From Flavobacteriales bacterium (GTDB lineage: Bacteria > Bacteroidota > Bacteroidia > Flavobacteriales_C > GCA-002722245): a stretch of 64,000 nt of DNA. The notes beneath the pieces are model-generated. The model did no database searches, was not told where the DNA came from, and saw nothing but the letters and a program-made list of their open reading frames with translations. This document shows positions 1 to 13,820 of this stretch, piece after piece (the stretch's first letter is position 1; every line of letters starts with the position of its first letter). Both the position numbers and the translations under genes were made by a program. The stretch covers positions 41,742 to 105,741 of the forward strand of contig JBMTCG010000001.1 in NCBI GenBank assembly GCA_049430665.1, read 5' to 3'.

Positions 1-1553
1 GCAGTAGCTTCGGCGATGGTGGCCACTGTTGTTTCTTCCTCAGCACCAAAGGCTGCGCTGCTTTTGTTTTTTCGTCTCCAGTTGTCTTCTAATTTACGTT
101 GTCCCCATAGGGCTGCAAATTTTGCTTTTCCGGCGCTTACCAACGACGGATTGTAGAAATACCATTTGCCACTTTGGTCGCTTTGTAAAGTGTTGTTTTG
201 TTTGGTGGCCGCATCGGCATTAAGCAATTCTTGTTCTTTGCGTTGGTCTTCTTCTTCAATAAAGCGGGCAATGGTTTTATCAATCTTTTTTAAACGCGCT
301 TCTTCGGGCATTTTGGCTAAGGTAAGTAAGCTATCTTGTGTATTGATGATTTCAATTTGAACCACTAAATCTTTGAGGTTGTTCTTTTTGATTTCGGTAG
401 GCTCGTAAAGTGCATCTTCTGCGGGCATCACGGTAAGTGAACTGTCGTAATAAGAAGCTGCACCTAAATAATCTGATTTTTTAAAGTTGATTTCTGCAAC
501 AGCCAAAAAAGCCAGAGCTTTTTGTTTTCTGTTTTTTACGCTTTTGTTGGCAGCCAATAGATAGTATTCGGTGGCTTTAACCTCATCGCCATTTTGATGA
601 TAGATTTGAGCAACGGTGTAATAAATTTGATCGAGGTATTCTTTGTTCTTTTCTTCTTTTGCCATCTTTAGCAACGAACGCGCAAAATCATCTGATTTGT
701 TACCAGCACTTTGCGCTTTTGTCATTTCTATTACAGCGCTAAACTGCATATCGTAATTACTAACGCCGCTTGTTACTTTTTTGTAAGCTGCAATGGCTTC
801 TGTTTTATTGCCTTCTCTAGTTTGCAATTGCGCTAAAACATAATACCATCTTGTTTTTAATTTCTTTTTGGCTTTAAAGGTTAGCGCTTCATTCAATGCT
901 TTAATGGCTTCTTTATTGTCGTTGGTTTTAATGAAGTACTGTGCTTTTGCGACTAAATAGTAGCCTTTTTTCTTCTTTGGAACTTCTGTATCGTTATCAA
1001 GTTTATCTATGATTTTTCTTGCTTCTTCGTATTTCTCATCGGCAACATAAGCGCGCATCAACCAAATTAAGGCATCGTATTTTATCTTTTTCTTGTCGTA
1101 TTCTTTGGCAATGTATTCAAAGGTGTTGGCGGCATTGCTGAATTCTCTTTTGTAGAAATACGATTTGCCTAGAAGGAGATAACAATCGTCGATAAAAGGA
1201 TTCACTTCTCTTTCTTCAGTTTTGCCGTCTTTTTTGTTTTTCAATTTAAAGCGCATACTGTGGCGATCTATGCCTTTTGATGCTTTTTGAATACTAATGT
1301 CTAACAGAGAAGCTACTTCTTTTGAGGAGCTTTCGTCGCCATCGGGAAAAACAGAAATGATGTTTTGATATTCATCGACCGTACCGGTGTATAGCTTTTG
1401 TTCCGACTCTTTTAGTTTTTCATTACCATTGAAGAAAACGTTGTAGCGTGTGGTAAGTGCATGGTAGCCTTTATTCACTAAAGAATTGCGCTCTTTGCTG
1501 CAACTTGCCAAAAAGAGAATCAAAAGAATACTATAAAATTTTATGCTTTTCAA
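1..1553 (-). CDS. TPR-repeat lipoprotein, partial (N-terminus in window, C-terminus beyond coordinate 1)
   Basis: My own translation of the minus strand gives an uninterrupted ORF from a TTG near 1553 (LKSIKFYSILLILFLASCSKERNS...) running off the window start. It has a lipobox LASC and TPR-like helical repeats. It is absent from the ORF track because it has no stop in the window. Confidence 0.5.
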   Translation of the reverse strand, partial: MKSIKFYSILLILFLASCSKERNSLVNKGYHALTTRYNVFFNGNEKLKESEQKLYTGTVDEYQNIISVFPDGDESSSKEVASLLDISIQKASKGIDRHSMRFKLKNKKDGKTEEREVNPFIDDCYLLLGKSYFYKREFSNAANTFEYIAKEYDKKKIKYDALIWLMRAYVADEKYEEARKIIDKLDNDTEVPKKKKGYYLVAKAQYFIKTNDNKEAIKALNEALTFKAKKKLKTRWYYVLAQLQTREGNKTEAIAAYKKVTSGVSNYDMQFSAVIEMTKAQSAGNKSDDFARSLLKMAKEEKNKEYLDQIYYTVAQIYHQNGDEVKATEYYLLAANKSVKNRKQKALAFLAVAEINFKKSDYLGAASYYDSSLTVMPAEDALYEPTEIKKNNLKDLVVQIEIINTQDSLLTLAKMPEEARLKKIDKTIARFIEEEDQRKEQELLNADAATKQNNTLQSDQSGKWYFYNPSLVSAGKAKFAALWGQRKLEDNWRRKNKSSAAFGAEEETTVATIAEAT

Positions 1554-1623
1554 TGAGGTATAAACTAAAAACGAGTAAAAATATTTTAATTTTCTCTATT
1601 ATTGAAGATAAATAAATCAGCAA

Positions 1624-2427
1624 TTGAAAAAACCGGTAACCGTTAAAAGTAAGAAAATACTGGGGATAATTAAGAAACAGCACGTTTTGCTGGTTCATGA
1701 AGAATCTCAAACGGGCACTGCTGTGCTCTTTTTTAAGTCGCGTTTGGTAAGTATTGTCTTGGTTTCTCTGGCTATTTTTCTAGTGATCTTTGCCTTGGCT
1801 TTTGTTATTTTGGCTTATACTCCTGTGCAGCAATATGTGCCCGGCTTTTTAAGCGATCACCAAAAAGAAATATTGCTAGATGATGCCCGTAAGACCGACG
1901 CTTTAGAAGAAGAGCTTAAGGGTAAGGAGGTGTATTATTCACATTTAGATTCGTTGATAGAAGAGTGGATTCCAAAGAACGATACTTTAAAAGGAGAGGT
2001 AAATGCGGCCAATATTTCGGTGCTGATGCCCGCCGAAGAGCAAATGAAAGCCATTAAAAACTTTTACTTCTATGCTCCGCTTCACGGCTTAATTTCTAAG
2101 CATTTCAATTATCAGGAAAAGCATTACGGAGTGGATATTGTATCGAAAAAAAACGAAGCGGTGAAAGCTACTTTAAATGGAAGAATAATATTGTCCACTT
2201 GGTCGGCAGAAACAGGAAATACTATTGTTTTACAACATTCAAACAATTTAATTTCGGTGTACAAACATTGCTCGGCCATGCTTAAAAAGGAAGGACAGTT
2301 TTGCAAGGCAGGCGAGGTAATCGCCATTATTGGTAATACGGGTGAAGATTCTTCGGGTCCGCATTTGCATTTTGAATTGTGGTTGAATGGAACGCCGTTG
2401 AATCCGGCGTCACATATGAGTTTTTAA
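1624..2427 (+). CDS. M23 family metallopeptidase (LytM/EnvC-like) with N-terminal TM anchor
   Basis: C-terminal motif GNTGEDSSGPHLHFELWLNG is the M23 zinc-site signature. A hydrophobic segment lies near the N-terminus. The exact start is uncertain. Confidence 0.7.
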   Translation: MKKPVTVKSKKILGIIKKQHVLLVHEESQTGTAVLFFKSRLVSIVLVSLAIFLVIFALAFVILAYTPVQQYVPGFLSDHQKEILLDDARKTDALEEELKGKEVYYSHLDSLIEEWIPKNDTLKGEVNAANISVLMPAEEQMKAIKNFYFYAPLHGLISKHFNYQEKHYGVDIVSKKNEAVKATLNGRIILSTWSAETGNTIVLQHSNNLISVYKHCSAMLKKEGQFCKAGEVIAIIGNTGEDSSGPHLHFELWLNGTPLNPASHMSF

Positions 2428-2636
2428 TGTTAAGCACGCAAATATTTTACTTGTTGTTTATTGCTGTTACGTGGTTTGGTAGCTATTCGTATGTGCAGAA
2501 GCAGATTATGCCGATACCTAAATTGCAAAGTATTTTTAAGGTGCAATGGCAAAAAACAGTAGCGACGTATTTGCTGTCATTAATTTTAGCACTGGCGATT
2601 ACTCAGTTGGCGATTTATAGCACGAAGTTTTTTTAA
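2379..2636 (+). CDS. small hydrophobic ORF, hypothetical
   Basis: 85-aa ORF with two hydrophobic segments that overlaps the M23 gene end. There is no homology I can name, so it may be spurious. Confidence 0.2.
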   Translation: MVEWNAVESGVTYEFLMLSTQIFYLLFIAVTWFGSYSYVQKQIMPIPKLQSIFKVQWQKTVATYLLSLILALAITQLAIYSTKFF

Positions 2637-6537: not shown

Positions 6538-7368
6538 TTGTTGTTCGATGCTCTCGCCAATCAAGAGGTGTATGATGAAGACAAAATCATCAAGAAGTTT
6601 AAGGGCGCAGCATTCATCAAAAATTTATCGAAAAGCAAGAATCATCTGTACCATGTTATTTTAAAGCGATTAGCACAATACCACGAAGAAAATATCATTG
6701 AGATTAAAATTAAGGGTTTAGTGAATCAGGCTACCATTTTGTATAAGAAAGGATTGTACGAACATGCAGTGATTCACTACGAAAAGGCCTTGCGTTTAGC
6801 TTTAGACGCAGAAGAATTGGAAGTGGCCTTAGAAATTTATACCTGTCTTTTAGACATCTACTTTGTGGGAAGTATGGGCATAAAATTTCCTTATGAAGAG
6901 GAAATGAAAGTGCTTTCAAAAAAACTGAACAATGAACATTTGATAGCGCAACTGCACACCAAAATTGCAGAGAAAATGTTCTCCGACGATTTTAATTCTG
7001 AGCCAGAACAGGTGCAAAGTATTCACGATATTTTGAATGCGCCTTTGCTTCAAAAAATTAACGATAACGATAGTTTTTTTGCACAGTGGGGCAAGATGTG
7101 CATTCATACCCACAGCTACTATCTGCTAAGTCAGCATGAAGATGCCGATGCTATGAAAGCAAAGCAACTGGAGTTTTTGCGTACCCACCCAGCCATGACC
7201 AGTAAAACGCCCATGCGCTATGTAAAACATTTGGCCAACATGATCAATGGCAAATTAAATACTTGCCATTATGATGACATTCCTTCTCTTTTAGAAGAAT
7301 TGAAAAACTTTCAAAGCAACGAAAATTTGTTAGAGCATATTAAACCTTTACAGCTCTCGGTATATTAG
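6538..7368 (+). CDS. helical-repeat (TPR-like) hypothetical protein, N-terminal part; same frame as the next ORF, separated by one TAG
   Basis: ORF with a TTG start. The stop TAG at 7366-7368 lies in the same frame as the ORF starting at 7378. Confidence 0.45.
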   Translation: MLFDALANQEVYDEDKIIKKFKGAAFIKNLSKSKNHLYHVILKRLAQYHEENIIEIKIKGLVNQATILYKKGLYEHAVIHYEKALRLALDAEELEVALEIYTCLLDIYFVGSMGIKFPYEEEMKVLSKKLNNEHLIAQLHTKIAEKMFSDDFNSEPEQVQSIHDILNAPLLQKINDNDSFFAQWGKMCIHTHSYYLLSQHEDADAMKAKQLEFLRTHPAMTSKTPMRYVKHLANMINGKLNTCHYDDIPSLLEELKNFQSNENLLEHIKPLQLSVY

Positions 7369-7377
7369 ATTCAATCG

Positions 7378-7962
7378 TTGTCTTTATATACTCAAATTAA
7401 TCAACTCGACAAGGCTTATGCTCTCTTAGATGAAAGTATATTGTGGTTCGAAAAGAATGAACATTTGGTATCAGACTACTTTAAAATCATCTTTTACGAC
7501 TCAGTTTTCTTAGTGTATTTTATGAAAGGTGAGTTTAAAAAATGCATTCCTTGGATGAATAAAATAGCACATTCGAAAACGCCTTTCAGAAAAGAGTTGC
7601 GCTTGAGTTTAAAACTAAATTTATTGCTGTTACATTTTGAGCTTAAGAATTACGAATTGATTAGCTATCAAATCAAATCGTTGTACCGTGAAATACTAAA
7701 ACAAGAAAACAATCAAGAATCAACAAAATACATTCTACGCTGGTTTCAAGATTGTTTGAAAGACGCTAATAACGAAGCGTCACTTAAGAAATCAGCTGAG
7801 GAAATTAAATATCGTTTGCATAAAATGACTGAAAGTGGCGAGTGGAAACTGCTACTAGAAATGCGCTTATTTCACGCATGGTTGGAATCGAAAATCAATA
7901 AAAAGTCGGTTGCTGAAAACTACGCTAAAGAATATTTATTAGAATTAGCAGAACCAATCTAA
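7378..7962 (+). CDS. helical-repeat hypothetical protein, C-terminal part of a possibly interrupted gene
   Basis: Frame-1 ORF beginning 9 nt after the in-frame TAG of the previous ORF, with the same composition and repeat style. Confidence 0.4.
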   Translation: MSLYTQINQLDKAYALLDESILWFEKNEHLVSDYFKIIFYDSVFLVYFMKGEFKKCIPWMNKIAHSKTPFRKELRLSLKLNLLLLHFELKNYELISYQIKSLYREILKQENNQESTKYILRWFQDCLKDANNEASLKKSAEEIKYRLHKMTESGEWKLLLEMRLFHAWLESKINKKSVAENYAKEYLLELAEPI

Positions 7963-8010
7963 AGAGATACTAAACAAAAAAGTCCTACCGATTTCACTCG
8001 AAAGGACTTC

Positions 8011-8032
8011 TGCTCTCCCTCTTGGACTTGAA
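8011..8032. repeat. att-site direct repeat (distal copy of the tRNA-Asn 3' end)
   Basis: Exact 22-nt match to 12726-12747. It lacks the upstream tRNA body, so it is a partial tRNA 3' end only. Confidence 0.7.
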
Positions 8033-8337
8033 GCCTAAGAGGAAATGCTGTAATATTAAGTCATTTAGAACTATCAACTTTTAGGGACACCTAATTTGTC
8101 ACCTAATTCTTAAAAAGAACCATATAGCAAATATACAGTTTTCAGTTTTTGAACACTAAAATTCCTCTACAAATTAAAGCCTGTATGGAGAAATATATTT
8201 GACTTCTCCTTACTAAAGTATTTTCATCGTTATCATCAATTGGATAAATTCCTGAATATATCCATTCATTGTATGAGTACCTGAACCATCTGCGCGTACA
8301 GATATTTTCACTCCGTTTTAAGGGATTATTCCGATTT

Positions 8338-9375
8338 TTATTGCAAAATAATCTTTTTTACTTCAACCAAATTACCTGAACCGTCTATAATATTAACAAA
8401 ATAAGTTCCAGTACTAAATGTATTAAGGTTAACTGAATATGACGGCTGACTGATTGTTTGTTGGTAAACCTCTTGATTCAATGTATTCAAAATTTTAATT
8501 TGGTAGCCATTGCTAGTTGAGTTGGCAATAGAAATATTTAACTGGTCATTAGTAGGGTTCGGGAAAATCTTAATGTTATTGGAATAACTAATAGGATTGA
8601 ATCCTGTTACATTCAGATTGATGACTAATGTATCCGTAACCGTCAAGTTTTGTAAGCATAGACTTTCATTGTACAATGCGGTTACTTCATTAGCGGTTAT
8701 TGCTCGGTCATAAATTCGATAATCATCAAGCGTTCCATCAAAATGCCCACCAGCTGGCCACACTTGGTGCGCACCAATAAATAAATCTGTACCATTGGTA
8801 ATTGGAGCCATTGCGCTACCTGATTGACTACCAGTTTGAGATACTAGTACATTGTCAATGTAAATTTTGAATTGTGAAGCCATTACAGAGCCAGCAGCCC
8901 CATCGTAAACGCCAACAACATGATGCCAGCTTCCATCGCGATATGTTCCATCTGTCATTTGGCCAATTGATTTTGCAGGACCATCATTGTTGAAAAGAAC
9001 TCTTCCATCATAAAACCCGCCTGTTATTGAGTGAAGATGTATTGTTAAACCATCTTGATTGTTTAACCCGCGTCCGCTAATTATTATACCGCCATAAGTG
9101 GTTTTAAACCAAGCAGAAATAGTATAAGAAGTCACATTGGTTTGTTGCAGACTTACTTGAATGGTGTCGTTGCCGTCAAACTGATAAGCATGATTGGGTC
9201 TTCCAAATCTGTCTGCTGTAAGTACTGCCCCTTTAACAGTTCCGTTGTGTCCGTTACCTGAGTTGTCACTAGCATTTCCCGTAAACGACCAATAAGCCAC
9301 CAATCCATTAGTTGGTATTTGAGCAATTGATGTCATTGCCAAAACCATTAGTAAAAAAGTAAACGTTTTTTTCAT
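8338..9375 (-). CDS. secreted LamG/concanavalin-like jelly-roll domain protein with T9SS C-terminal sorting domain
   Basis: N-terminal signal peptide. The central region is typical of the LamG-like (Laminin_G_3) fold. The C-terminal roughly 80 aa (KIFPNPTNDQLNI...GTYFVNIIDGSGN...KKIILQ) match the type A T9SS sorting domain pattern. Confidence 0.65.
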   Translation of the reverse strand: MKKTFTFLLMVLAMTSIAQIPTNGLVAYWSFTGNASDNSGNGHNGTVKGAVLTADRFGRPNHAYQFDGNDTIQVSLQQTNVTSYTISAWFKTTYGGIIISGRGLNNQDGLTIHLHSITGGFYDGRVLFNNDGPAKSIGQMTDGTYRDGSWHHVVGVYDGAAGSVMASQFKIYIDNVLVSQTGSQSGSAMAPITNGTDLFIGAHQVWPAGGHFDGTLDDYRIYDRAITANEVTALYNESLCLQNLTVTDTLVINLNVTGFNPISYSNNIKIFPNPTNDQLNISIANSTSNGYQIKILNTLNQEVYQQTISQPSYSVNLNTFSTGTYFVNIIDGSGNLVEVKKIILQ

Positions 9376-9412
9376 AACTGATTTTTAAAGTTTTGGGAAA
9401 TATAAGGAAAAA

Positions 9413-9461
9413 TCTCCATATATGGAGAAAACAATTCTTTTGCATCTCTCCATTTTAGGAG
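9413..9461. promoter_or_regulatory. two TCTCC-N6-GGAGA palindromic operator-like sites in the divergent promoter region (9413-9428 perfect palindrome TCTCCATATATGGAGA; 9446-9461 TCTCCATTTTAGGAGA)
   Basis: Seen directly. The second site ends 2 nt before the XRE gene ATG at 9463. A related GGAGA-N13-TCTCC arrangement with a TATGGAGAAA half-site is at 8188-8210. Confidence 0.5.
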
Positions 9462-9462
9462 A

Positions 9463-9753
9463 ATGAAAAAATCTCTAAAGACAAGTCAATCTAAGAAGCC
9501 ACGACGAATACTAAAGTCTGATGAGAGAAACGATTTCAACAAAAAAATAGGTGACTATATTCGTGAGAAGCGAGAAGAAGCGAAATTAACACAAACCCAA
9601 TTAGCGGATAAACTTTATGATGGTCAAATGGAACCCAAAGGAGTATGGAAAATAGAAAATGGCTTGTACACCCCTAATCTTTATGTTATTGCGGAAATAG
9701 CAAAGGTTTTTAATCTTTCGTTATCAGAATTCCTAAAAGATTTCAAGTATTAA
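9463..9753 (+). CDS. XRE-family helix-turn-helix transcriptional regulator
   Basis: The LTQTQLADKLYDGQ...VWKIENG segment is a classic Cro/C1-type HTH. It is a small, 96-aa protein. Confidence 0.65.
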   Translation: MKKSLKTSQSKKPRRILKSDERNDFNKKIGDYIREKREEAKLTQTQLADKLYDGQMEPKGVWKIENGLYTPNLYVIAEIAKVFNLSLSEFLKDFKY

Positions 9754-9857
9754 CACCTCATTATACTTCCCTTTTTACCCTTACCGCCTCCTTTAAGCCC
9801 CCCTATATCAAATAGCTAAAACAAAAAAACAAGCGCAATTACCGCGTTTATTACTAT

Positions 9858-10718
9858 GTGCTACCATGCAGCACAATATTCAAAGGCATTTATGTCCGAA
9901 TCGCCAGCAATTTTTTCGGTTTTCAATTTCACTTGTGTCATTTGACACATATCATAAATAAAGAAATTTTACTCGGAGAAGTCCCATTTGACACACTTTC
10001 ACCTTTTGGTCAGTATTTATATTCAAATAACAACTTGTATTACCGAAGGTGCGTCCAGATGAAAGCATACATGACAACAAAAGAATTTCTTGCGAAAGCA
10101 AATACCAGCAGGTCATCATTAATCAGATTAACAAAAGATTTAATGAAGAAAAAAGCTGAATGGAAAATAACTTATATCAAAGAAACAGCTAAAGGAAACT
10201 TGTTTCACCACTCATTACTTTCTCAATTCATTCCCGAATGGTGTTTAAATAAGTTAGTCGAATACGAAGAACATTTTGATGACATGAGAAATTTAGTAGC
10301 TGTATTGGAAGACTCCAATTCATTGCCATATATATTATATAAGATGAAATGGGATAGTTTCATTACGGTTGCTTATGCCAAAACTTATAAGCCGGAAAGA
10401 TGCTTTATCATGATGTCAGAAGTCGCCAACATACTAGAAGAAAAATGCGGGAAGGGAATCGAATTCCGTATGTTTTTTACTACAGAATCATTTTCCCATC
10501 GGGAAGGACACCACAATCATTTTTTCCTTCGGGTAGGAAACCATGAAAGAAGAGAATACGCATTAGATTTTATCAAGGATTACTTTGCTGGTGACCGAGT
10601 AGATATTAAATCATACGACCAAGAAAAAGCTGGCCTATTTTATATTGCCAAAAGTGGTTTGCAGGGAACCGAATGGGACATAAGAGGGAATAACTTAGGT
10701 AATGCCCAAACCAAATGA
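9858..10718 (+). CDS. hypothetical element protein with HUH-like motif (HHNHFFL) followed by Y..K residues; probable true start at ATG 10059
   Basis: The ORF track start of 9858 is probably too early: MKAYMTTKEF at 10059 follows a promoter-like region with TTTGACACA repeats. The His cluster plus downstream Tyr resembles rolling-circle Rep/relaxase HUH motifs, but only weakly. Confidence 0.35.
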   Translation: MLPCSTIFKGIYVRIASNFFGFQFHLCHLTHIINKEILLGEVPFDTLSPFGQYLYSNNNLYYRRCVQMKAYMTTKEFLAKANTSRSSLIRLTKDLMKKKAEWKITYIKETAKGNLFHHSLLSQFIPEWCLNKLVEYEEHFDDMRNLVAVLEDSNSLPYILYKMKWDSFITVAYAKTYKPERCFIMMSEVANILEEKCGKGIEFRMFFTTESFSHREGHHNHFFLRVGNHERREYALDFIKDYFAGDRVDIKSYDQEKAGLFYIAKSGLQGTEWDIRGNNLGNAQTK

Positions 10719-10848
10719 AAAAGGTAATACTAACCAAAAAGCAAATCTTAATGGTAATTAATGCTATGAAATCCGGTGAAATCAAAGTCCCAATTTATAT
10801 GAGCGGAGCTACTTTTAATGCTGTTTTCAATACTAAAAGCAACAAAAT

Positions 10849-10876
10849 GTTGTGTCCGCCGCAGGCGGATCACAAC
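10849..10876. terminator. GC-rich hairpin between convergent element genes (bidirectional terminator candidate)
   Basis: GTTGTGTCCGCC-GCAG-GCGGATCACAAC forms an 11-bp stem with one bulge. It has T-rich flanks on both strands and lies between the gene ends at 10718 and 10905. Confidence 0.4.
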
Positions 10877-10904
10877 ACCGTTTATTGATTATATCTCTGC
10901 AAAA

Positions 10905-11177
10905 TCAAATAGCGTTAAAATAGTATTCAATTGATTTTCGAGAATAATACCAAGCACCATTTAGCTTCTTTGATTTAATTTTTTGATTAACTCTTAAAGA
11001 CTTTAGCGTGTTCGCGGAGCAACTTAAAATCTCACGAGCTTCACCACCTTTTACCCATTCCTTATTATTAGTTTGTGTTTTTTCGGACAACATTTGTCCG
11101 ATTTCGTGTAAGAGTTCTGTTTTTAAACTGCGGATGATTAATTGTAAATCGTCATGTGATACTAAATTTAGGTTCAT
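10905..11177 (-). CDS. excisionase-family (MerR-like HTH_17) DNA-binding protein
   Basis: The C-terminal segment EWVKGGEAREILSCSANTLKSLRVNQKIKSKKLNGAWYYSRKSIEYYF matches the excisionase/HTH_17 pattern. It lies immediately upstream of the integrase on the same strand. Confidence 0.55.
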   Translation of the reverse strand: MNLNLVSHDDLQLIIRSLKTELLHEIGQMLSEKTQTNNKEWVKGGEAREILSCSANTLKSLRVNQKIKSKKLNGAWYYSRKSIEYYFNAI

Positions 11178-11213
11178 TATTCATGTTGTTTAACCTATTG
11201 TTATTGTGGGTGG

Positions 11214-12611
11214 CTATGAAGCCAGTTTTATGATTTTAATTTTTTTGGAGAGGGCTTTTCCTTTTTTCAATTTCTTTTCAAGTTGCGCCATATCATTTTG
11301 AATTTTGGCATTACCAATTTTGGCATATATTTTTGTTGTCTTTAAATCCCTATGTGACAAAATTTCGCTTACTGTTTCAATAGGGACGCCATTTGCTAAA
11401 GCAACAGTTGTCGCAAATTTGTGACGTGCTGCGTGGTAACTTATTTCTTTGTTGATACCACATAAAGCTGCGATTTTCTTTAAATAATCATTGGTGGTTT
11501 GGTGACTATAAATTGGAAATATTTTATTCTTTTCGATAGAAATAGGGTGATTTTTATACTTCTCTACAATTCGTTTTGCTTCAGGGAGTAATGGCAAATT
11601 AATCTTCTCGTCTGTTTTTTTTCGATTGGTTACAATCCAGTATTTACCATCAATTCCACGTATTATTTCACTACTTTGAAGTTTACTAACATCTGCGAAT
11701 GCTAATGCTGTATAGCACGAAAACACGAATACATCACGAACAAGCGAAAGGCTTGGATTACTCAAATTTTCTTGTTCTAATTTTAGTAACTCTTCAGAAT
11801 TTAAAAAAGGACGTTGGGTGTCTTTGAAAACACCATTCCAATGTTCTGACAAATTATTGTTGAGCCATTTATTTCTATACGCCATACTAAGTATTTTCTT
11901 TAAGGCTTTACAATACCCTATGGCAGTGTTAAACTGGTGTTTGTATTCTGTTCTTAAAAAGTATTCAAAATCGCCAATGATAGTTGTAGAAAGGTCATTT
12001 AAAGCAATATCCTTAGTAAGGAAACGAAAAGAAATAAAGGCTTTAAGCATACGCAAGGCTATTTCATGTTTTTCAAGTCGTGATTCGGAAACCTTGCCAA
12101 TGCTTACCTGTTCTTTGAAATCTTTATTATGTAATTCGTATGCTTCTATTAAGGTATATTGTTTTTCACCAATGCCTTTTAGCAGATTTACAATCATTTC
12201 GGGAGTAGCCGTTTTTCCAGCCAATTGTAAAGTATTATAATGCTTTCGCACCTCATTAGATTTACTAGACAAAAAGCAATTCAATATTTGAGCCTCTTCT
12301 TTATTGCCTTTAGCTTTTTGGGCTTTAGAATCCCACTGAGAAGGTAAAATCCATTGTTTAGTACTTAGGTCTGAACGATTGCCGTTAATTGTTATGCGCA
12401 AATAGATAGGCGTTGCGCCCGTTTGTCTGTTCTTCTTCGCACCGCGAAGGTAAAATAAGGTTGAAACCATTCTTTGAAACCATTTTTTTTCTTTGTTATT
12501 GTTTTTCATTAGTATAAACAATTTAAAATTAATAATCAAGTGCCTGTTGCAGATTTCTTGGAGAAATAGAAGAAAATAGGTGTCCCTGTTTTGCTGGGTT
12601 AATAAGGACAC
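11214..12611 (-). CDS. tyrosine-type site-specific integrase (probable true start ATG near 12509, MKNNNKEKKWF)
   Basis: The N-terminus is Bacteroidota integrase-like (ATPIYLRITINGNRSDLSTKQW). The C-terminal catalytic region HAARHKFATT...LSHRDLKTTKIYAKI carries the RHR-Y-type catalytic residues. It sits next to tRNA-Asn. Confidence 0.8.
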   Translation of the reverse strand: MSLLTQQNRDTYFLLFLQEICNRHLIINFKLFILMKNNNKEKKWFQRMVSTLFYLRGAKKNRQTGATPIYLRITINGNRSDLSTKQWILPSQWDSKAQKAKGNKEEAQILNCFLSSKSNEVRKHYNTLQLAGKTATPEMIVNLLKGIGEKQYTLIEAYELHNKDFKEQVSIGKVSESRLEKHEIALRMLKAFISFRFLTKDIALNDLSTTIIGDFEYFLRTEYKHQFNTAIGYCKALKKILSMAYRNKWLNNNLSEHWNGVFKDTQRPFLNSEELLKLEQENLSNPSLSLVRDVFVFSCYTALAFADVSKLQSSEIIRGIDGKYWIVTNRKKTDEKINLPLLPEAKRIVEKYKNHPISIEKNKIFPIYSHQTTNDYLKKIAALCGINKEISYHAARHKFATTVALANGVPIETVSEILSHRDLKTTKIYAKIGNAKIQNDMAQLEKKLKKGKALSKKIKIIKLAS

Positions 12612-12660
12612 CGAAAAGGCACCCTACTTTTGATAGTTTTTGATGTTTTTTGCTGGGGTA

Positions 12661-12699
12661 TTAAAACAAAAAACCGTGCAACCTTCTATTGTTGCACGG
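12661..12699 (-). terminator. intrinsic terminator downstream of tRNA-Asn
   Basis: CCGTGCAAC-CTTCTATT-GTTGCACGG is a 9-bp stem. On the minus strand it is followed by a U-run (complement of AAAAAACAAAA at 12661-12673). Confidence 0.55.
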
Positions 12700-12727
12700 C
12701 TTTGACCACATTTGCTCTCTGGTCTTG

Positions 12728-12801
12728 CTCTCCCTCTTGGACTTGAACCAAGGACCCTCTGATTAACAGTCAGATGCTCTAACCAGCTGAGCTAAGGAAG
12801 A
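12728..12801 (-). tRNA. tRNA-Asn (anticodon GTT)
   Basis: Manual fold of the minus strand gives acceptor TCTTCCT/AGGGAGA (one G-U pair), D-arm GCTC-AGCTGGTTA-GAGC, anticodon arm TCTGA-CTGTTAA-TCAGA (GTT), variable loop GGGTC, T-arm CTTGG-TTCAAGT-CCAAG and discriminator G. CCA is not encoded. A 5' UCC start occurs in E. coli tRNA-Asn too. Confidence 0.8.
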
Positions 12802-12890
12802 ATGGTTTTCCGAAAAACGGAGTGCAATAATAGTTCAAAGTTTGGAATTATGCAATATATTAGCGCCTACAAACGCAAAAAAAATTTATC

Positions 12891-13820
12891 ATGAGCTTAG
12901 TTATCGTTGGAACAGTAGCATTTGACGCTATAGAAACCCCTTTTGGAAAAACAGACAAAATCGTTGGTGGATCAGCTACTTACGTGGGTTTGTCGGCTGC
13001 AAAACTCGGACAAAAACCAAAATTAATTGCAGTGGTTGGAGATGATTTTCCGAAGACTGCCATTGATATGTTGAAGCAAAATAATTTCGATTTAGAAGGT
13101 TTAGAAATCAAAAAAGGAGAAAAAACTTTCTTCTGGTCGGGTAAATATCATTTCGACATGAACTCTCGCGATACTTTGGTTACTGAATTAAATGTGTTGG
13201 CTGGTTTCGACCCTGAAATGCCCGCTTCTTACCAAGATTGCGAATACTTAATGTTGGGAAATTTAGCTCCTGCCATTCAACAAAAAGTGATTAAAAGCAT
13301 GACTAAGCGTCCGAAATTAATCGTTATGGATACCATGAACTTTTGGATGGACATCGCATTAGAAGAGTTGAAACAAACTATTTCTATGGTAGATGTGGTT
13401 ACAGTAAACGACGAAGAAGCGCGCCAATTAACAGGCGAATATTCATTGATTAATGCGGCACACAAAATATTAACCATGGGTCCTAAATACCTTATCATTA
13501 AAAAAGGTGAGCACGGCGCATTATTGTTCGATAAAGAAAGAATGTTCTTCGCTCCTGCCCTTCCATTGGCCGATGTAGTTGACCCTACTGGTGCTGGTGA
13601 TACTTTTGCTGGTGGATTCATTGGCTATATCGCTAAAACGGGTGATATTTCTTTCGATAATTTCAAACGTGCCGTAATTCACGGTTCGGCTTTGGCGTCT
13701 TTCTGTGTGCAAGATTTTGGAACTAAAAGAATGGAAACGTTAACTTACAGTGAAGTTCGCGATAGAATAGATAAGTTTGTGAGCCTAACAAGATTTGAAT
13801 TAGAAGCAGTAGCTTATTAA
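12891..13820 (+). CDS. PfkB-family carbohydrate kinase (ribokinase-like)
   Basis: The DPTGAGDTFAGGF motif is the PfkB signature 2. Size is about 309 aa. Confidence 0.7.
   Translation: MSLVIVGTVAFDAIETPFGKTDKIVGGSATYVGLSAAKLGQKPKLIAVVGDDFPKTAIDMLKQNNFDLEGLEIKKGEKTFFWSGKYHFDMNSRDTLVTELNVLAGFDPEMPASYQDCEYLMLGNLAPAIQQKVIKSMTKRPKLIVMDTMNFWMDIALEELKQTISMVDVVTVNDEEARQLTGEYSLINAAHKILTMGPKYLIIKKGEHGALLFDKERMFFAPALPLADVVDPTGAGDTFAGGFIGYIAKTGDISFDNFKRAVIHGSALASFCVQDFGTKRMETLTYSEVRDRIDKFVSLTRFELEAVAY

Follow-up and report, generated by a model that had tools for sequence, protein, structure and literature searches.

The stretch of DNA analysed here, referred to below as the window, comprises 64,000 nt of the Flavobacteriales bacterium assembly GCA_049430665.1 (contig JBMTCG010000001.1, positions 41,742-105,741). 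Its sole tRNA gene, a tRNA-Asn(GTT) on the minus strand, adjoins a compact interval that encodes a tyrosine integrase, a predicted Rep-like HUH endonuclease and a secreted protein with a LamG fold. We describe this interval as a minimal integrative element bounded by two attachment (att) sites, attR and attL, and consider how it may move. Its features, in order along the window, are as follows.

7972-8010, minus strand: native tRNA-Asn intrinsic terminator, a hairpin and U-run recognized by folding, on the chromosomal side of attR
8011-8032: attR core, 22 nt that duplicate the 3′ end of tRNA-Asn (exact repeat)
8081-8108, plus strand: candidate arm-type integrase sites GGACACCTAAT / GTCACCTAAT, with a putative function
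8338-9375, minus strand: secreted LamG-fold protein with a signal peptide and a type IX secretion system (T9SS) C-terminal sorting domain (Pfam Laminin_G_3, 1e-21; Por_Secre_tail, 4e-12)
9463-9753, plus strand: XRE-family helix-turn-helix (HTH) regulator, in divergent orientation to the LamG gene and preceding rep (Pfam HTH_3, 7e-10; PHROG transcriptional repressor families)
9934-9995, plus strand: non-coding candidate operator or origin upstream of rep, with a palindrome, TGTGTCAttTGACACA, at 9934-9949 and a second, CATTTGACACA, at 9985-9995
10059-10718, plus strand: predicted Rep-like HUH endonuclease with an N-terminal winged helix, 219 aa, of an uncatalogued family (alternative start at 10071, giving 215 aa)
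10715-10888, plus strand: small open reading frame (ORF) of 57 aa, overlapping the stop codon of rep with its start, with no family match
10905-11177, minus strand: HTH_17 protein (Pfam), candidate excisionase or recombination directionality factor, downstream of int
11214-12509, minus strand: tyrosine integrase of the IntCTnDOT subgroup, 431 aa, assigned by its Pfam domains
12575-12630: candidate arm-type sites of the int-proximal arm, with GGACACC at 12579-12585 (minus) and 12606-12612 (plus), likewise putative in function
12670-12703, minus strand: element-borne intrinsic terminator (13-bp stem and T-run), now serving the rebuilt tRNA-Asn
12726-12747: attL core, the exact 22-nt repeat overlapping the 3′ end of the intact tRNA
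12727-12801 (ARAGORN) or 12728-12801 (Rfam tRNA, 67.5 bits), minus strand: tRNA-Asn(GTT), intact, the integration target

The borders of the element are defined by a 22-nt direct repeat, TGCTCTCCCTCTTGGACTTGAA, which is present in the window as two exact copies 4,715 bp apart (8011-8032 and 12726-12747). No further copy appeared when up to three mismatches were allowed, and because none was expected by chance and none of 100 dinucleotide-preserving shuffles contained a match, we rejected a chance origin for the repeat. It consists of the 3′ 20 nt of the tRNA-Asn plus the 2 nt beyond, as had been noted in an initial annotation made from the sequence alone, and this composition agrees with the placement of the tRNA by both ARAGORN and Rfam. 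On the minus strand the attR copy of the repeat is followed directly by the hairpin at 7972-8010 (-15.5 kcal/mol, z = -4.76; 0 of 200 shuffles were equally stable). The same hairpin recurs directly 3′ of the intact tRNA-Asn in three related contigs (L083, at 12988-13019, L095, and L096), from which we conclude that 7972-8010 is the native terminator of the tRNA, stranded at attR. The element-borne terminator at 12670-12703 is the stronger of the two (-26.9 kcal/mol, z = -6.98). This border pattern is the one expected for an element that carries its own copy of the tRNA 3′ end and recombines within that copy. A scan of the element with Rfam identified nothing but the tRNA, and a sigma-70 promoter scan, whose model does not cover Bacteroidota promoters, returned 23 sites relative to 20.5 expected.

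A sister element was identified on contigs L083-L087 at essentially the same locus as that of the window and with the same gene order (LamG, XRE, Rep, small ORF, HTH_17, and Int). The identity between the proteins of the two elements is 86% for Int, 81% for HTH_17, 79% for both Rep and XRE, and 49% for LamG, and at the nucleotide level the host flanks are ~83% identical and the elements themselves 75-84%. The target of the sister element is a tRNA-Asn-like pseudo-tRNA adjoining the true tRNA-Asn, whereas the true tRNA-Asn is the target in the window. When JGI and ENA metagenome contigs were queried with a predicted attB string, composed of the native terminator, the core and the tRNA, an empty site was recovered on contig L095, which is colinear with L083 at 94-97% nucleotide identity (1139-2998 with L083 6085-7944, and 2977-4962 with L083 12599-14605). 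These two flank matches overlap at a single core, and the sister element is thus precisely missing from L095, where one 22-nt core is left and the absent DNA amounts to exactly the 4,654 bp flanked by the repeats of L083. In a three-way alignment, attB corresponds to the left side of attR, the core and the right side of attL. The element is therefore a real and precisely bounded insertion whose presence or absence is polymorphic among near-identical genomes of the sister lineage. The initial annotation had proposed looking for an empty site in closely related genomes, and that check was borne out for the sister element but not in the window's own lineage. Its broader claim of a tRNA-targeting integrative element is upheld by the integrase gene beside the intact tRNA, the displaced 3′ end with its native terminator, and the sister empty site. 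Each of the five ORFs listed in that annotation was recovered at the position given there.

A third, more distant member of this group, on contig L088, has only the LamG, Rep and Int genes (36, 59, and 43% identity, respectively); it lies between 14-nt repeats of its own tRNA-Asn 3′ end, and its native terminator is situated outside attR. The ORFs are intact in all three lineages, represented by the window, L083-L087 and L088. The linkage of tRNA-Asn to a pfkB kinase gene is widespread in Bacteroidota, and in four contigs with this linkage (L003, L004, L008, and L010) the element is absent, the tRNA being succeeded by a terminator and genes unrelated to it. Among them, L003 belongs to the nearest GTDB relative (kinase 92% identical), and its homology to the window extends only from 12726 rightwards; as its left flank is rearranged, it could not be used as a strict empty site. 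Exact-protein look-ups of the flanks and the element genes returned the same population only (L001, L002, and L094).

The integrase gene lies inside the element, 217 nt from attL and adjoining the rebuilt tRNA, and its product has Arm-DNA-bind_5 (PF17293), Phage_int_SAM_5 (PF13102) and Phage_integrase (PF00589) domains, all above their cutoffs. Its identification as a tyrosine integrase had been made correctly in the initial annotation, but the gene had been drawn as 11214-12611, and gene calls in relatives and homologues do not support that extension, the start most likely being at 12509. In an alignment with XerD the catalytic residues K, HxxR, H and Y are kept and Arg I is replaced by Ala. 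An R-x-K sequence, a candidate counterpart of the CTnDOT arginine, is present in the integrases of the window (NRKKT) and of L088 (KRQKT). Arg I is absent from the CTnDOT, ERL and Tn5520 integrases of the IntCTnDOT subgroup, in which a downstream Arg substitutes for it (Smyshlyaev et al., PMC8138268). The product of 10905-11177, earlier described as an excisionase-type HTH protein, does have an HTH_17 domain (28.5 bits, cutoff 27) and has no match in NCBIfam; its part in directionality is a putative one.

The sequence GGACACC occurs seven times in the window relative to 2.3 expected, and three of the seven occurrences are at the element ends (8085, 12579, and 12606). As a GGACACC-type motif is also found at both ends of the distant L088 element (L088 8503 and 12124), such motifs are considered candidate arm-type integrase sites. 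The segment 7972-8137, which includes the attR-proximal 105-nt end of the element, is 92% identical to L083, relative to 75-84% elsewhere in the element. The two elements differ in the interval that separates attR from the LamG gene: L083 8050-8289 encodes a 64-aa protein (8079-8273), whereas window positions 8138-8337 are ~200 nt of unrelated non-coding sequence, which represents a small cargo difference between the sister elements.

The gene that sets this element apart encodes the 219-aa protein, for which no family was found in Pfam, NCBIfam or PHROG. It had been annotated as an HUH-motif protein at 9858-10718, and the HUH assignment is supported; homologues and gene calls in relatives place the start most likely at 10059 or 10071. 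A word-indexed search identified 22 relatives, and an exhaustive profile search of 1.84 billion representatives recovered only 204 clusters at E ≤ 1e-3; the family is rare. Its alignment contains three motifs in the order typical of Rep proteins (W..FITVAY, FFTTE.F..R.G.HNHF, and YD..KAGLFYI.K), which in the window protein take the form FITVAY, E143...H152-N-H154 and Y195-x-x-K198. Across 50 relatives, down to ~15-20% identity, the only invariant residues are W98, E143, H152, H154, Y195 and K198. With the exception of the additional W98, these form the set expected of an HUH enzyme, a Glu/His/His metal site and a YxxK catalytic tyrosine, as judged from the alignment.

An AlphaFold model of the protein (mean pLDDT 77.5, core 84-97) has the topology b1(motif I)-a-b2(E)-b3(HxH)-a-b-a(YxxK)-b, with motif I on b1 (100-105), the Glu on b2 (136-144), the H-N-H on b3 (151-159) and the Tyr on a helix (188-197), preceded by a winged helix (b-a-a-b-b, residues 4-50). 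As in the Rep nuclease fold, the central sheet carries the HUH motif and the tyrosine sits on a helix. The named matches in a Foldseek search of BFVD were all replication initiators, namely microvirus initiators, a REP_ORF2-G2P protein and Reps of uncultured circular viruses. At the sequence level, REP_ORF2-G2P (PF23343) was matched by 3 of 19 family members (best 3e-4) and by 4 of 10 distant relatives (at most 25.5 bits relative to a cutoff of 27.8), and one distant relative had a sub-threshold match to Rep_N. When a 50-sequence profile was compared to the PDB, the top matches were all nuclease domains of parvovirus NS1, at marginal significance (E ~0.03-0.07), with FFTTE..GyHnHf aligned to FFQVE..GYHIHV; a 19-sequence profile compared to PDB sequences gave nothing meaningful. 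These matches converge, and we consider it very probable that the protein belongs to an uncatalogued family of Rep-class HUH endonucleases, with a predicted nuclease activity. The motifs of the candidate operator or origin upstream of its gene (9934-9995) are kept in the window and L083 and partly in L088. Downstream, the 57-aa ORF is 79% identical over 39 aa to a 42-aa gene in L083, and in L090 and L092, too, rep is followed by small ORFs that overlap it.

A recombinase gene is found no more than a few kb from the Rep relative in most of the genomic contexts that we read on contigs of sufficient length. Tyrosine integrases are beside it in the window and in L083-L087, L088 and L092. Large serine recombinases take this position in L090, together with DarT and a Macro protein (DarG-like); in L091, together with a type I restriction-modification (R-M) system with an AAA_13 ATPase; and in L093, together with a small resolvase. 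In L089 (9213-20642) the integrase genes are ~8 kb from rep, at the far end of an island that starts at a tRNA-Met and carries a type I R-M system with an AAA_13 ATPase. The Rep relatives of L089, L090 and L091 are distant (36-39% identical) and head defence-carrying islands. This modular association with recombinases leads us to view Rep as a core mobility or maintenance function and not as cargo, and we propose, on the basis of gene neighbourhoods, that the HUH protein family marks recombinase-bearing mini-islands in Flavobacteriia. A more tentative generalization, to which we give slightly less than even odds, is that this new HUH Rep clade (~200 clusters) defines modular, minimal "integrase + Rep" rolling-circle elements in Flavobacteriia. 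Such elements would interchange recombinases of the tyrosine and serine types, would carry either defence systems (type I R-M, DarTG) or a T9SS surface protein that evolves fast, and may move as single-stranded circles without transfer genes of their own.

The LamG gene lies within the att borders in all three of the diverged family members examined (window, L083, and L088), which argues that it is not incidental cargo, and we rejected the idea that it is random cargo on this ground. The initial annotation had correctly recognized a T9SS-secreted LamG protein, as its Laminin_G_3 and Por_Secre_tail domains confirm, but its label of cargo needs qualification, the gene not being free cargo. The LamG proteins of the window (8338-9375) and L083 (8290-9324) are nevertheless only 49% identical, compared to 79-86% for the other element proteins and 97% for the host kinase, and the DNA of the gene can be aligned at its two ends only, with the N-terminus and the sorting domain conserved. 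The pattern points to diversifying selection, or to an exchange of the gene's central part. The family is very large (at least 979 proteins at E ≤ 1e-20) and also has homologues outside such elements, for which reason we claim no mobility role for LamG; a benefit to the element through surface modification, adhesion or exclusion is speculation. No exact-protein record was found for LamG as read from its first ATG. The divergently oriented XRE gene, annotated earlier as a repressor, has HTH_3 and PHROG transcriptional repressor matches that agree with that call. On another contig (L099, 5679-7074), a LamG/T9SS homologue (49% identical) is again divergently paired with a small XRE gene. The pair adjoins the gene for a 623-aa serine recombinase, genes for Fic and methyltransferase proteins are close by, and the XRE-LamG pair may be a portable module. 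A further LamG homologue, on L098, has an uninformative context.

We put at roughly 0.7 the probability that the 4,715-bp interval, taken as a whole, is a minimal site-specific integrative element that can probably be mobilized and is predicted to replicate or transfer by rolling-circle nicking. That it is an integrative element we regard as solid; its rolling-circle or mobilization mechanism is a well-motivated inference. In the mechanism that we envisage, the CTnDOT-type integrase would recombine the element-borne tRNA-Asn 3′ end (the attP core) with the chromosomal tRNA (attB), leaving the tRNA rebuilt at attL and the original 3′ end and terminator at attR, which is the structure present in the window. 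Excision by Int, with HTH_17 as directionality factor where it is present, would release a 4.7-kb circle. The winged helix of Rep would then recognize an origin, for which the conserved 300 bp preceding rep are the most plausible place, and Tyr195 would nick one strand of the circle, initiating rolling-circle replication and/or transfer of single-stranded DNA (ssDNA) via the conjugation apparatus of a helper, with XRE as the likely switch.

Several observations weigh against this interpretation. No helper element, whether a type IV secretion system or a phage, is visible in the window, and for its own lineage we found no empty site, excised circle or attP junction. The elements of the window and of L083 occupy nearly the same locus and their divergence is not far from that of their hosts, so much of their history may be vertical. 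The HTH_17 match is barely above its cutoff and the HTH_17 gene is missing from the L088 element. The HUH protein passes no curated Rep family threshold, all of its matches being sub-threshold, and its motif is H-N-H, with a central Asn instead of a hydrophobic residue. No nick site or origin was identified in the element; folded as ssDNA, the region upstream of rep has no outstanding hairpin (z = -0.94), and we therefore could not call an origin there. As for the means by which a helper conjugative element would mobilize the element, no origin of transfer (oriT) was identified, and scans of the element's proteins with Pfam, NCBIfam and PHROG revealed no canonical relaxase; the HUH protein could act as one by analogy with the streptococcal elements discussed below.

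The vertical component raises the question of whether the interval is a fixed, immobile islet, that is, an old vertically inherited insertion whose genes have been domesticated, with LamG serving the host and Rep and XRE acting as regulators. The occupancy of one locus in two lineages with roughly co-divergent flanks (~83%) and element (75-84%) is what such an islet would produce, as is our failure to see an excised form. We nonetheless consider it unlikely, as genomes that are 94-97% identical differ by the precise presence or absence of the element, the att cores are perfect, motifs are shared by both arms, and the element end (at 92%) is better conserved than the genes. The ORFs, moreover, are intact in three lineages and the catalytic residues of Rep are invariant across 50 relatives. 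The targets also differ, a true tRNA-Asn in the window and a pseudo-tRNA in L083, although deletion between tandem tRNA copies could likewise have caused that difference. The doubts about Rep bear on another account, in which the 219-aa protein is a DNA-binding regulator or recombination accessory, and the element merely an int/xis cassette with cargo, devoid of replication or transfer of its own. The protein does have an N-terminal winged helix with weak similarity to HTH_17 and MobI, its Rep-family matches are all below threshold, and ferredoxin-like folds are common. Against it, the sole residues invariant in the 50 relatives are, apart from W98, the metal and catalytic E, H, H, Y and K of an HUH enzyme, which fall on the expected secondary-structure elements, and the independent weak matches converge on REP_ORF2-G2P, Rep_N and NS1 and not on regulators; we judge this account very improbable.

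It is also feasible, if quite unlikely, that the element is a phage satellite or the remnant of a temperate ssDNA phage, in which circles made by Rep are packaged by a helper and the LamG jelly-roll is related to the virion or to the host surface. The viral origin of the named BFVD neighbours of Rep (microvirus initiators, the REP_ORF2-G2P protein, and uncultured circular virus Reps) is in keeping with this, as are a match of LamG to PHROG 8510, "virion structural protein" (2.5e-14), and the tiny size of an element without transfer genes. Genes for capsid, packaging, primase or capsid redirection are absent, however, and the PHROG matches are confined to XRE, Int, HTH_17 and the LamG domain. 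A tblastn search with Rep of 50,697 phage records gave no match (nor did one of plasmid records), one distant Rep relative is all that was found in IMG/VR, where it lies beside serine recombinases, and neither the arm sequence nor the integrase was found in the IMG/VR virome contigs. LamG itself, a member of a very large family of cellular proteins, is equipped with both a signal peptide and a T9SS sorting domain. A Microviridae-type provirus was rejected because there is no capsid (VP1) gene, the only large ORF besides int being the LamG/T9SS protein. Hence, of the phrase "minimal mobilizable or satellite-type" with which the element was initially described, we retain mobilizable, as probable, and set aside satellite, there being neither phage-type genes nor phage or virome matches.

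The integrative, probably mobilizable element that we favour resembles several known systems. With the Bacteroides elements NBU1 and NBU2 it shares insertion at a tRNA 3′ end, an IntCTnDOT-subgroup integrase accompanied by a small directionality factor (a candidate one in the window element), the lack of a mating apparatus, and dependence on a helper, which is presumed for the window element (PMC8138268; PMC5704250). However, NBU1 is ~10 kb, has a MobP relaxase and an oriT, and its integrase keeps Arg I, whereas the window element is 4.7 kb, has a Rep-type HUH protein with no match to a relaxase family (Pfam, NCBIfam, and PHROGs), and has Ala at Arg I. As there is no MobP relaxase or primase, we rejected its assignment as an NBU-type element. 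Tn5520 of Bacteroides fragilis, the smallest mobilizable transposon at ~4.7 kb, is likewise minimal, having one tyrosine integrase without Arg I and a single DNA-processing protein. It differs in having an AT-rich site preference, no cargo, and a conventional mobilization protein, whereas the window element is tRNA-specific, carries LamG, XRE and HTH_17, and encodes an HUH Rep-like protein.

A functional parallel is offered by streptococcal integrative mobilizable elements (IMEs), whose putative relaxases include types related to rolling-circle replication (RCR) initiators (Rep_2, PHA00330, Viral_Rep, and MobT) and 35 of 118 of which, among those of this type, lack a coupling protein (PMC5704250). 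MobT of ICEBs1/Tn916 functions in both replication and transfer (PMC5704250). The RCR-Rep-related relaxases of streptococcal IMEs are believed to act in the manner proposed above for the 219-aa protein. Like the window element, these IMEs are small, have a tyrosine or serine recombinase, and possess an HUH or RCR Rep relative as their sole transfer or replication gene (PMC5704250), and the modular swapping of recombinases is also seen among the Rep relatives described here. They are elements of Firmicutes, however, not Bacteroidota, and the Rep family reported here is unrelated to theirs in sequence and below every curated threshold; transfer is a prediction for the window element, as it is for most streptococcal IMEs of this type. 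With the HUH Rep nuclease domains of ssDNA viruses and plasmids (microvirus initiator, inovirus gpII/REP_ORF2-G2P, parvovirus NS1, and SIRV1 ORF119) the 219-aa protein shares the motif order I-II-III, the metal site of HxH and an upstream Glu, the YxxK helix and the fold. It differs from the viral and plasmid Reps in its low identity (10-21%), central Asn, N-terminal Xis-like winged helix and lack of a helicase domain, and, unlike the Reps of ssDNA viruses, it is encoded in integrated recombinase elements and not in viral genomes. The window element thus belongs to none of NBU1, Tn5520 or the streptococcal Rep-relaxase IMEs, given the absence of MobP, a different target logic, and an unrelated Rep.

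The class of element is well known; what deserves the attention of specialists is the HUH family, as yet uncatalogued, and the way in which it recurs with recombinases and defence genes in Flavobacteriia. Small integrated elements that rely on helpers are believed to account for a large share of the "genomic islands" that lack an explanation, and they have hardly been surveyed in environmental Bacteroidota. The present finding yields a cleanly bounded 3.8-4.7 kb element with an empty-site control. Its winged helix and HUH marker protein, unseen by current family databases, could reveal further islands of this kind, including defence carriers, and the compact tRNA-Asn-specific integrase/att pair is a possible genetic tool for Flavobacteriales. 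With its conserved, fast-diverging T9SS LamG gene, the element also prompts one to ask how carrying a surface protein could benefit DNA of such small size.

The DNA around the insertion sites has features of its own. Immediately left of attR in the window, two adjacent same-frame ORFs (6538-7368 and 7378-7962, plus strand) are parted by a single in-frame TAG (7366-7368) and match the N-terminal (38-305) and C-terminal (328-500) parts of NCBIfam NF058569 (BT2802 family); the pair is a nonsense-split gene or pseudogene, and the split recurs in an independent contig, L002, of a metagenome-assembled genome (MAG). In the sister lineage, 80-nt tRNA-Asn-like pseudo-tRNAs are present (L083 12596-12681 and 13135-13223; L095 2978-3057) in which a TCCCGAAUCUCGGGA hairpin takes the place of the anticodon arm's 5′ half, the acceptor and T arms being identical to those of tRNA-Asn. 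They are reported by ARAGORN as "tRNA-???" and score only 35.5 bits with Rfam tRNA; two copies flank the true tRNA-Asn, one of them being the target of the sister element. L083 also has a ~95% identical direct repeat of 384 nt (7561-7944 and 12659-13042) that contains a tRNA 5′ fragment, a gene for a 96-aa GIY-YIG nuclease, the tRNA terminator hairpin and the 22-nt core, from which we deduce that a unit of GIY-YIG gene, terminator and tRNA was tandemly duplicated around the L083 insertion site. There is no GIY-YIG gene at the tRNA-Asn insertion site of the window.

The MAG GCA_049429285.1 has the same element at 99.9% identity on two contigs broken inside rep (L002 ends at 10531 and L094 starts at 10529), and a Logan contig, L001, starts inside the tRNA at window position 12769; these assembly breaks may reflect strain heterogeneity at the locus. 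Relative to the sister lineage the left flank is inverted and rearranged (window 32-2428 corresponds to L083 5032-2636) and the right flank is colinear for more than 10 kb, and by this comparison the region to the left of the tRNA is a rearrangement hotspot.

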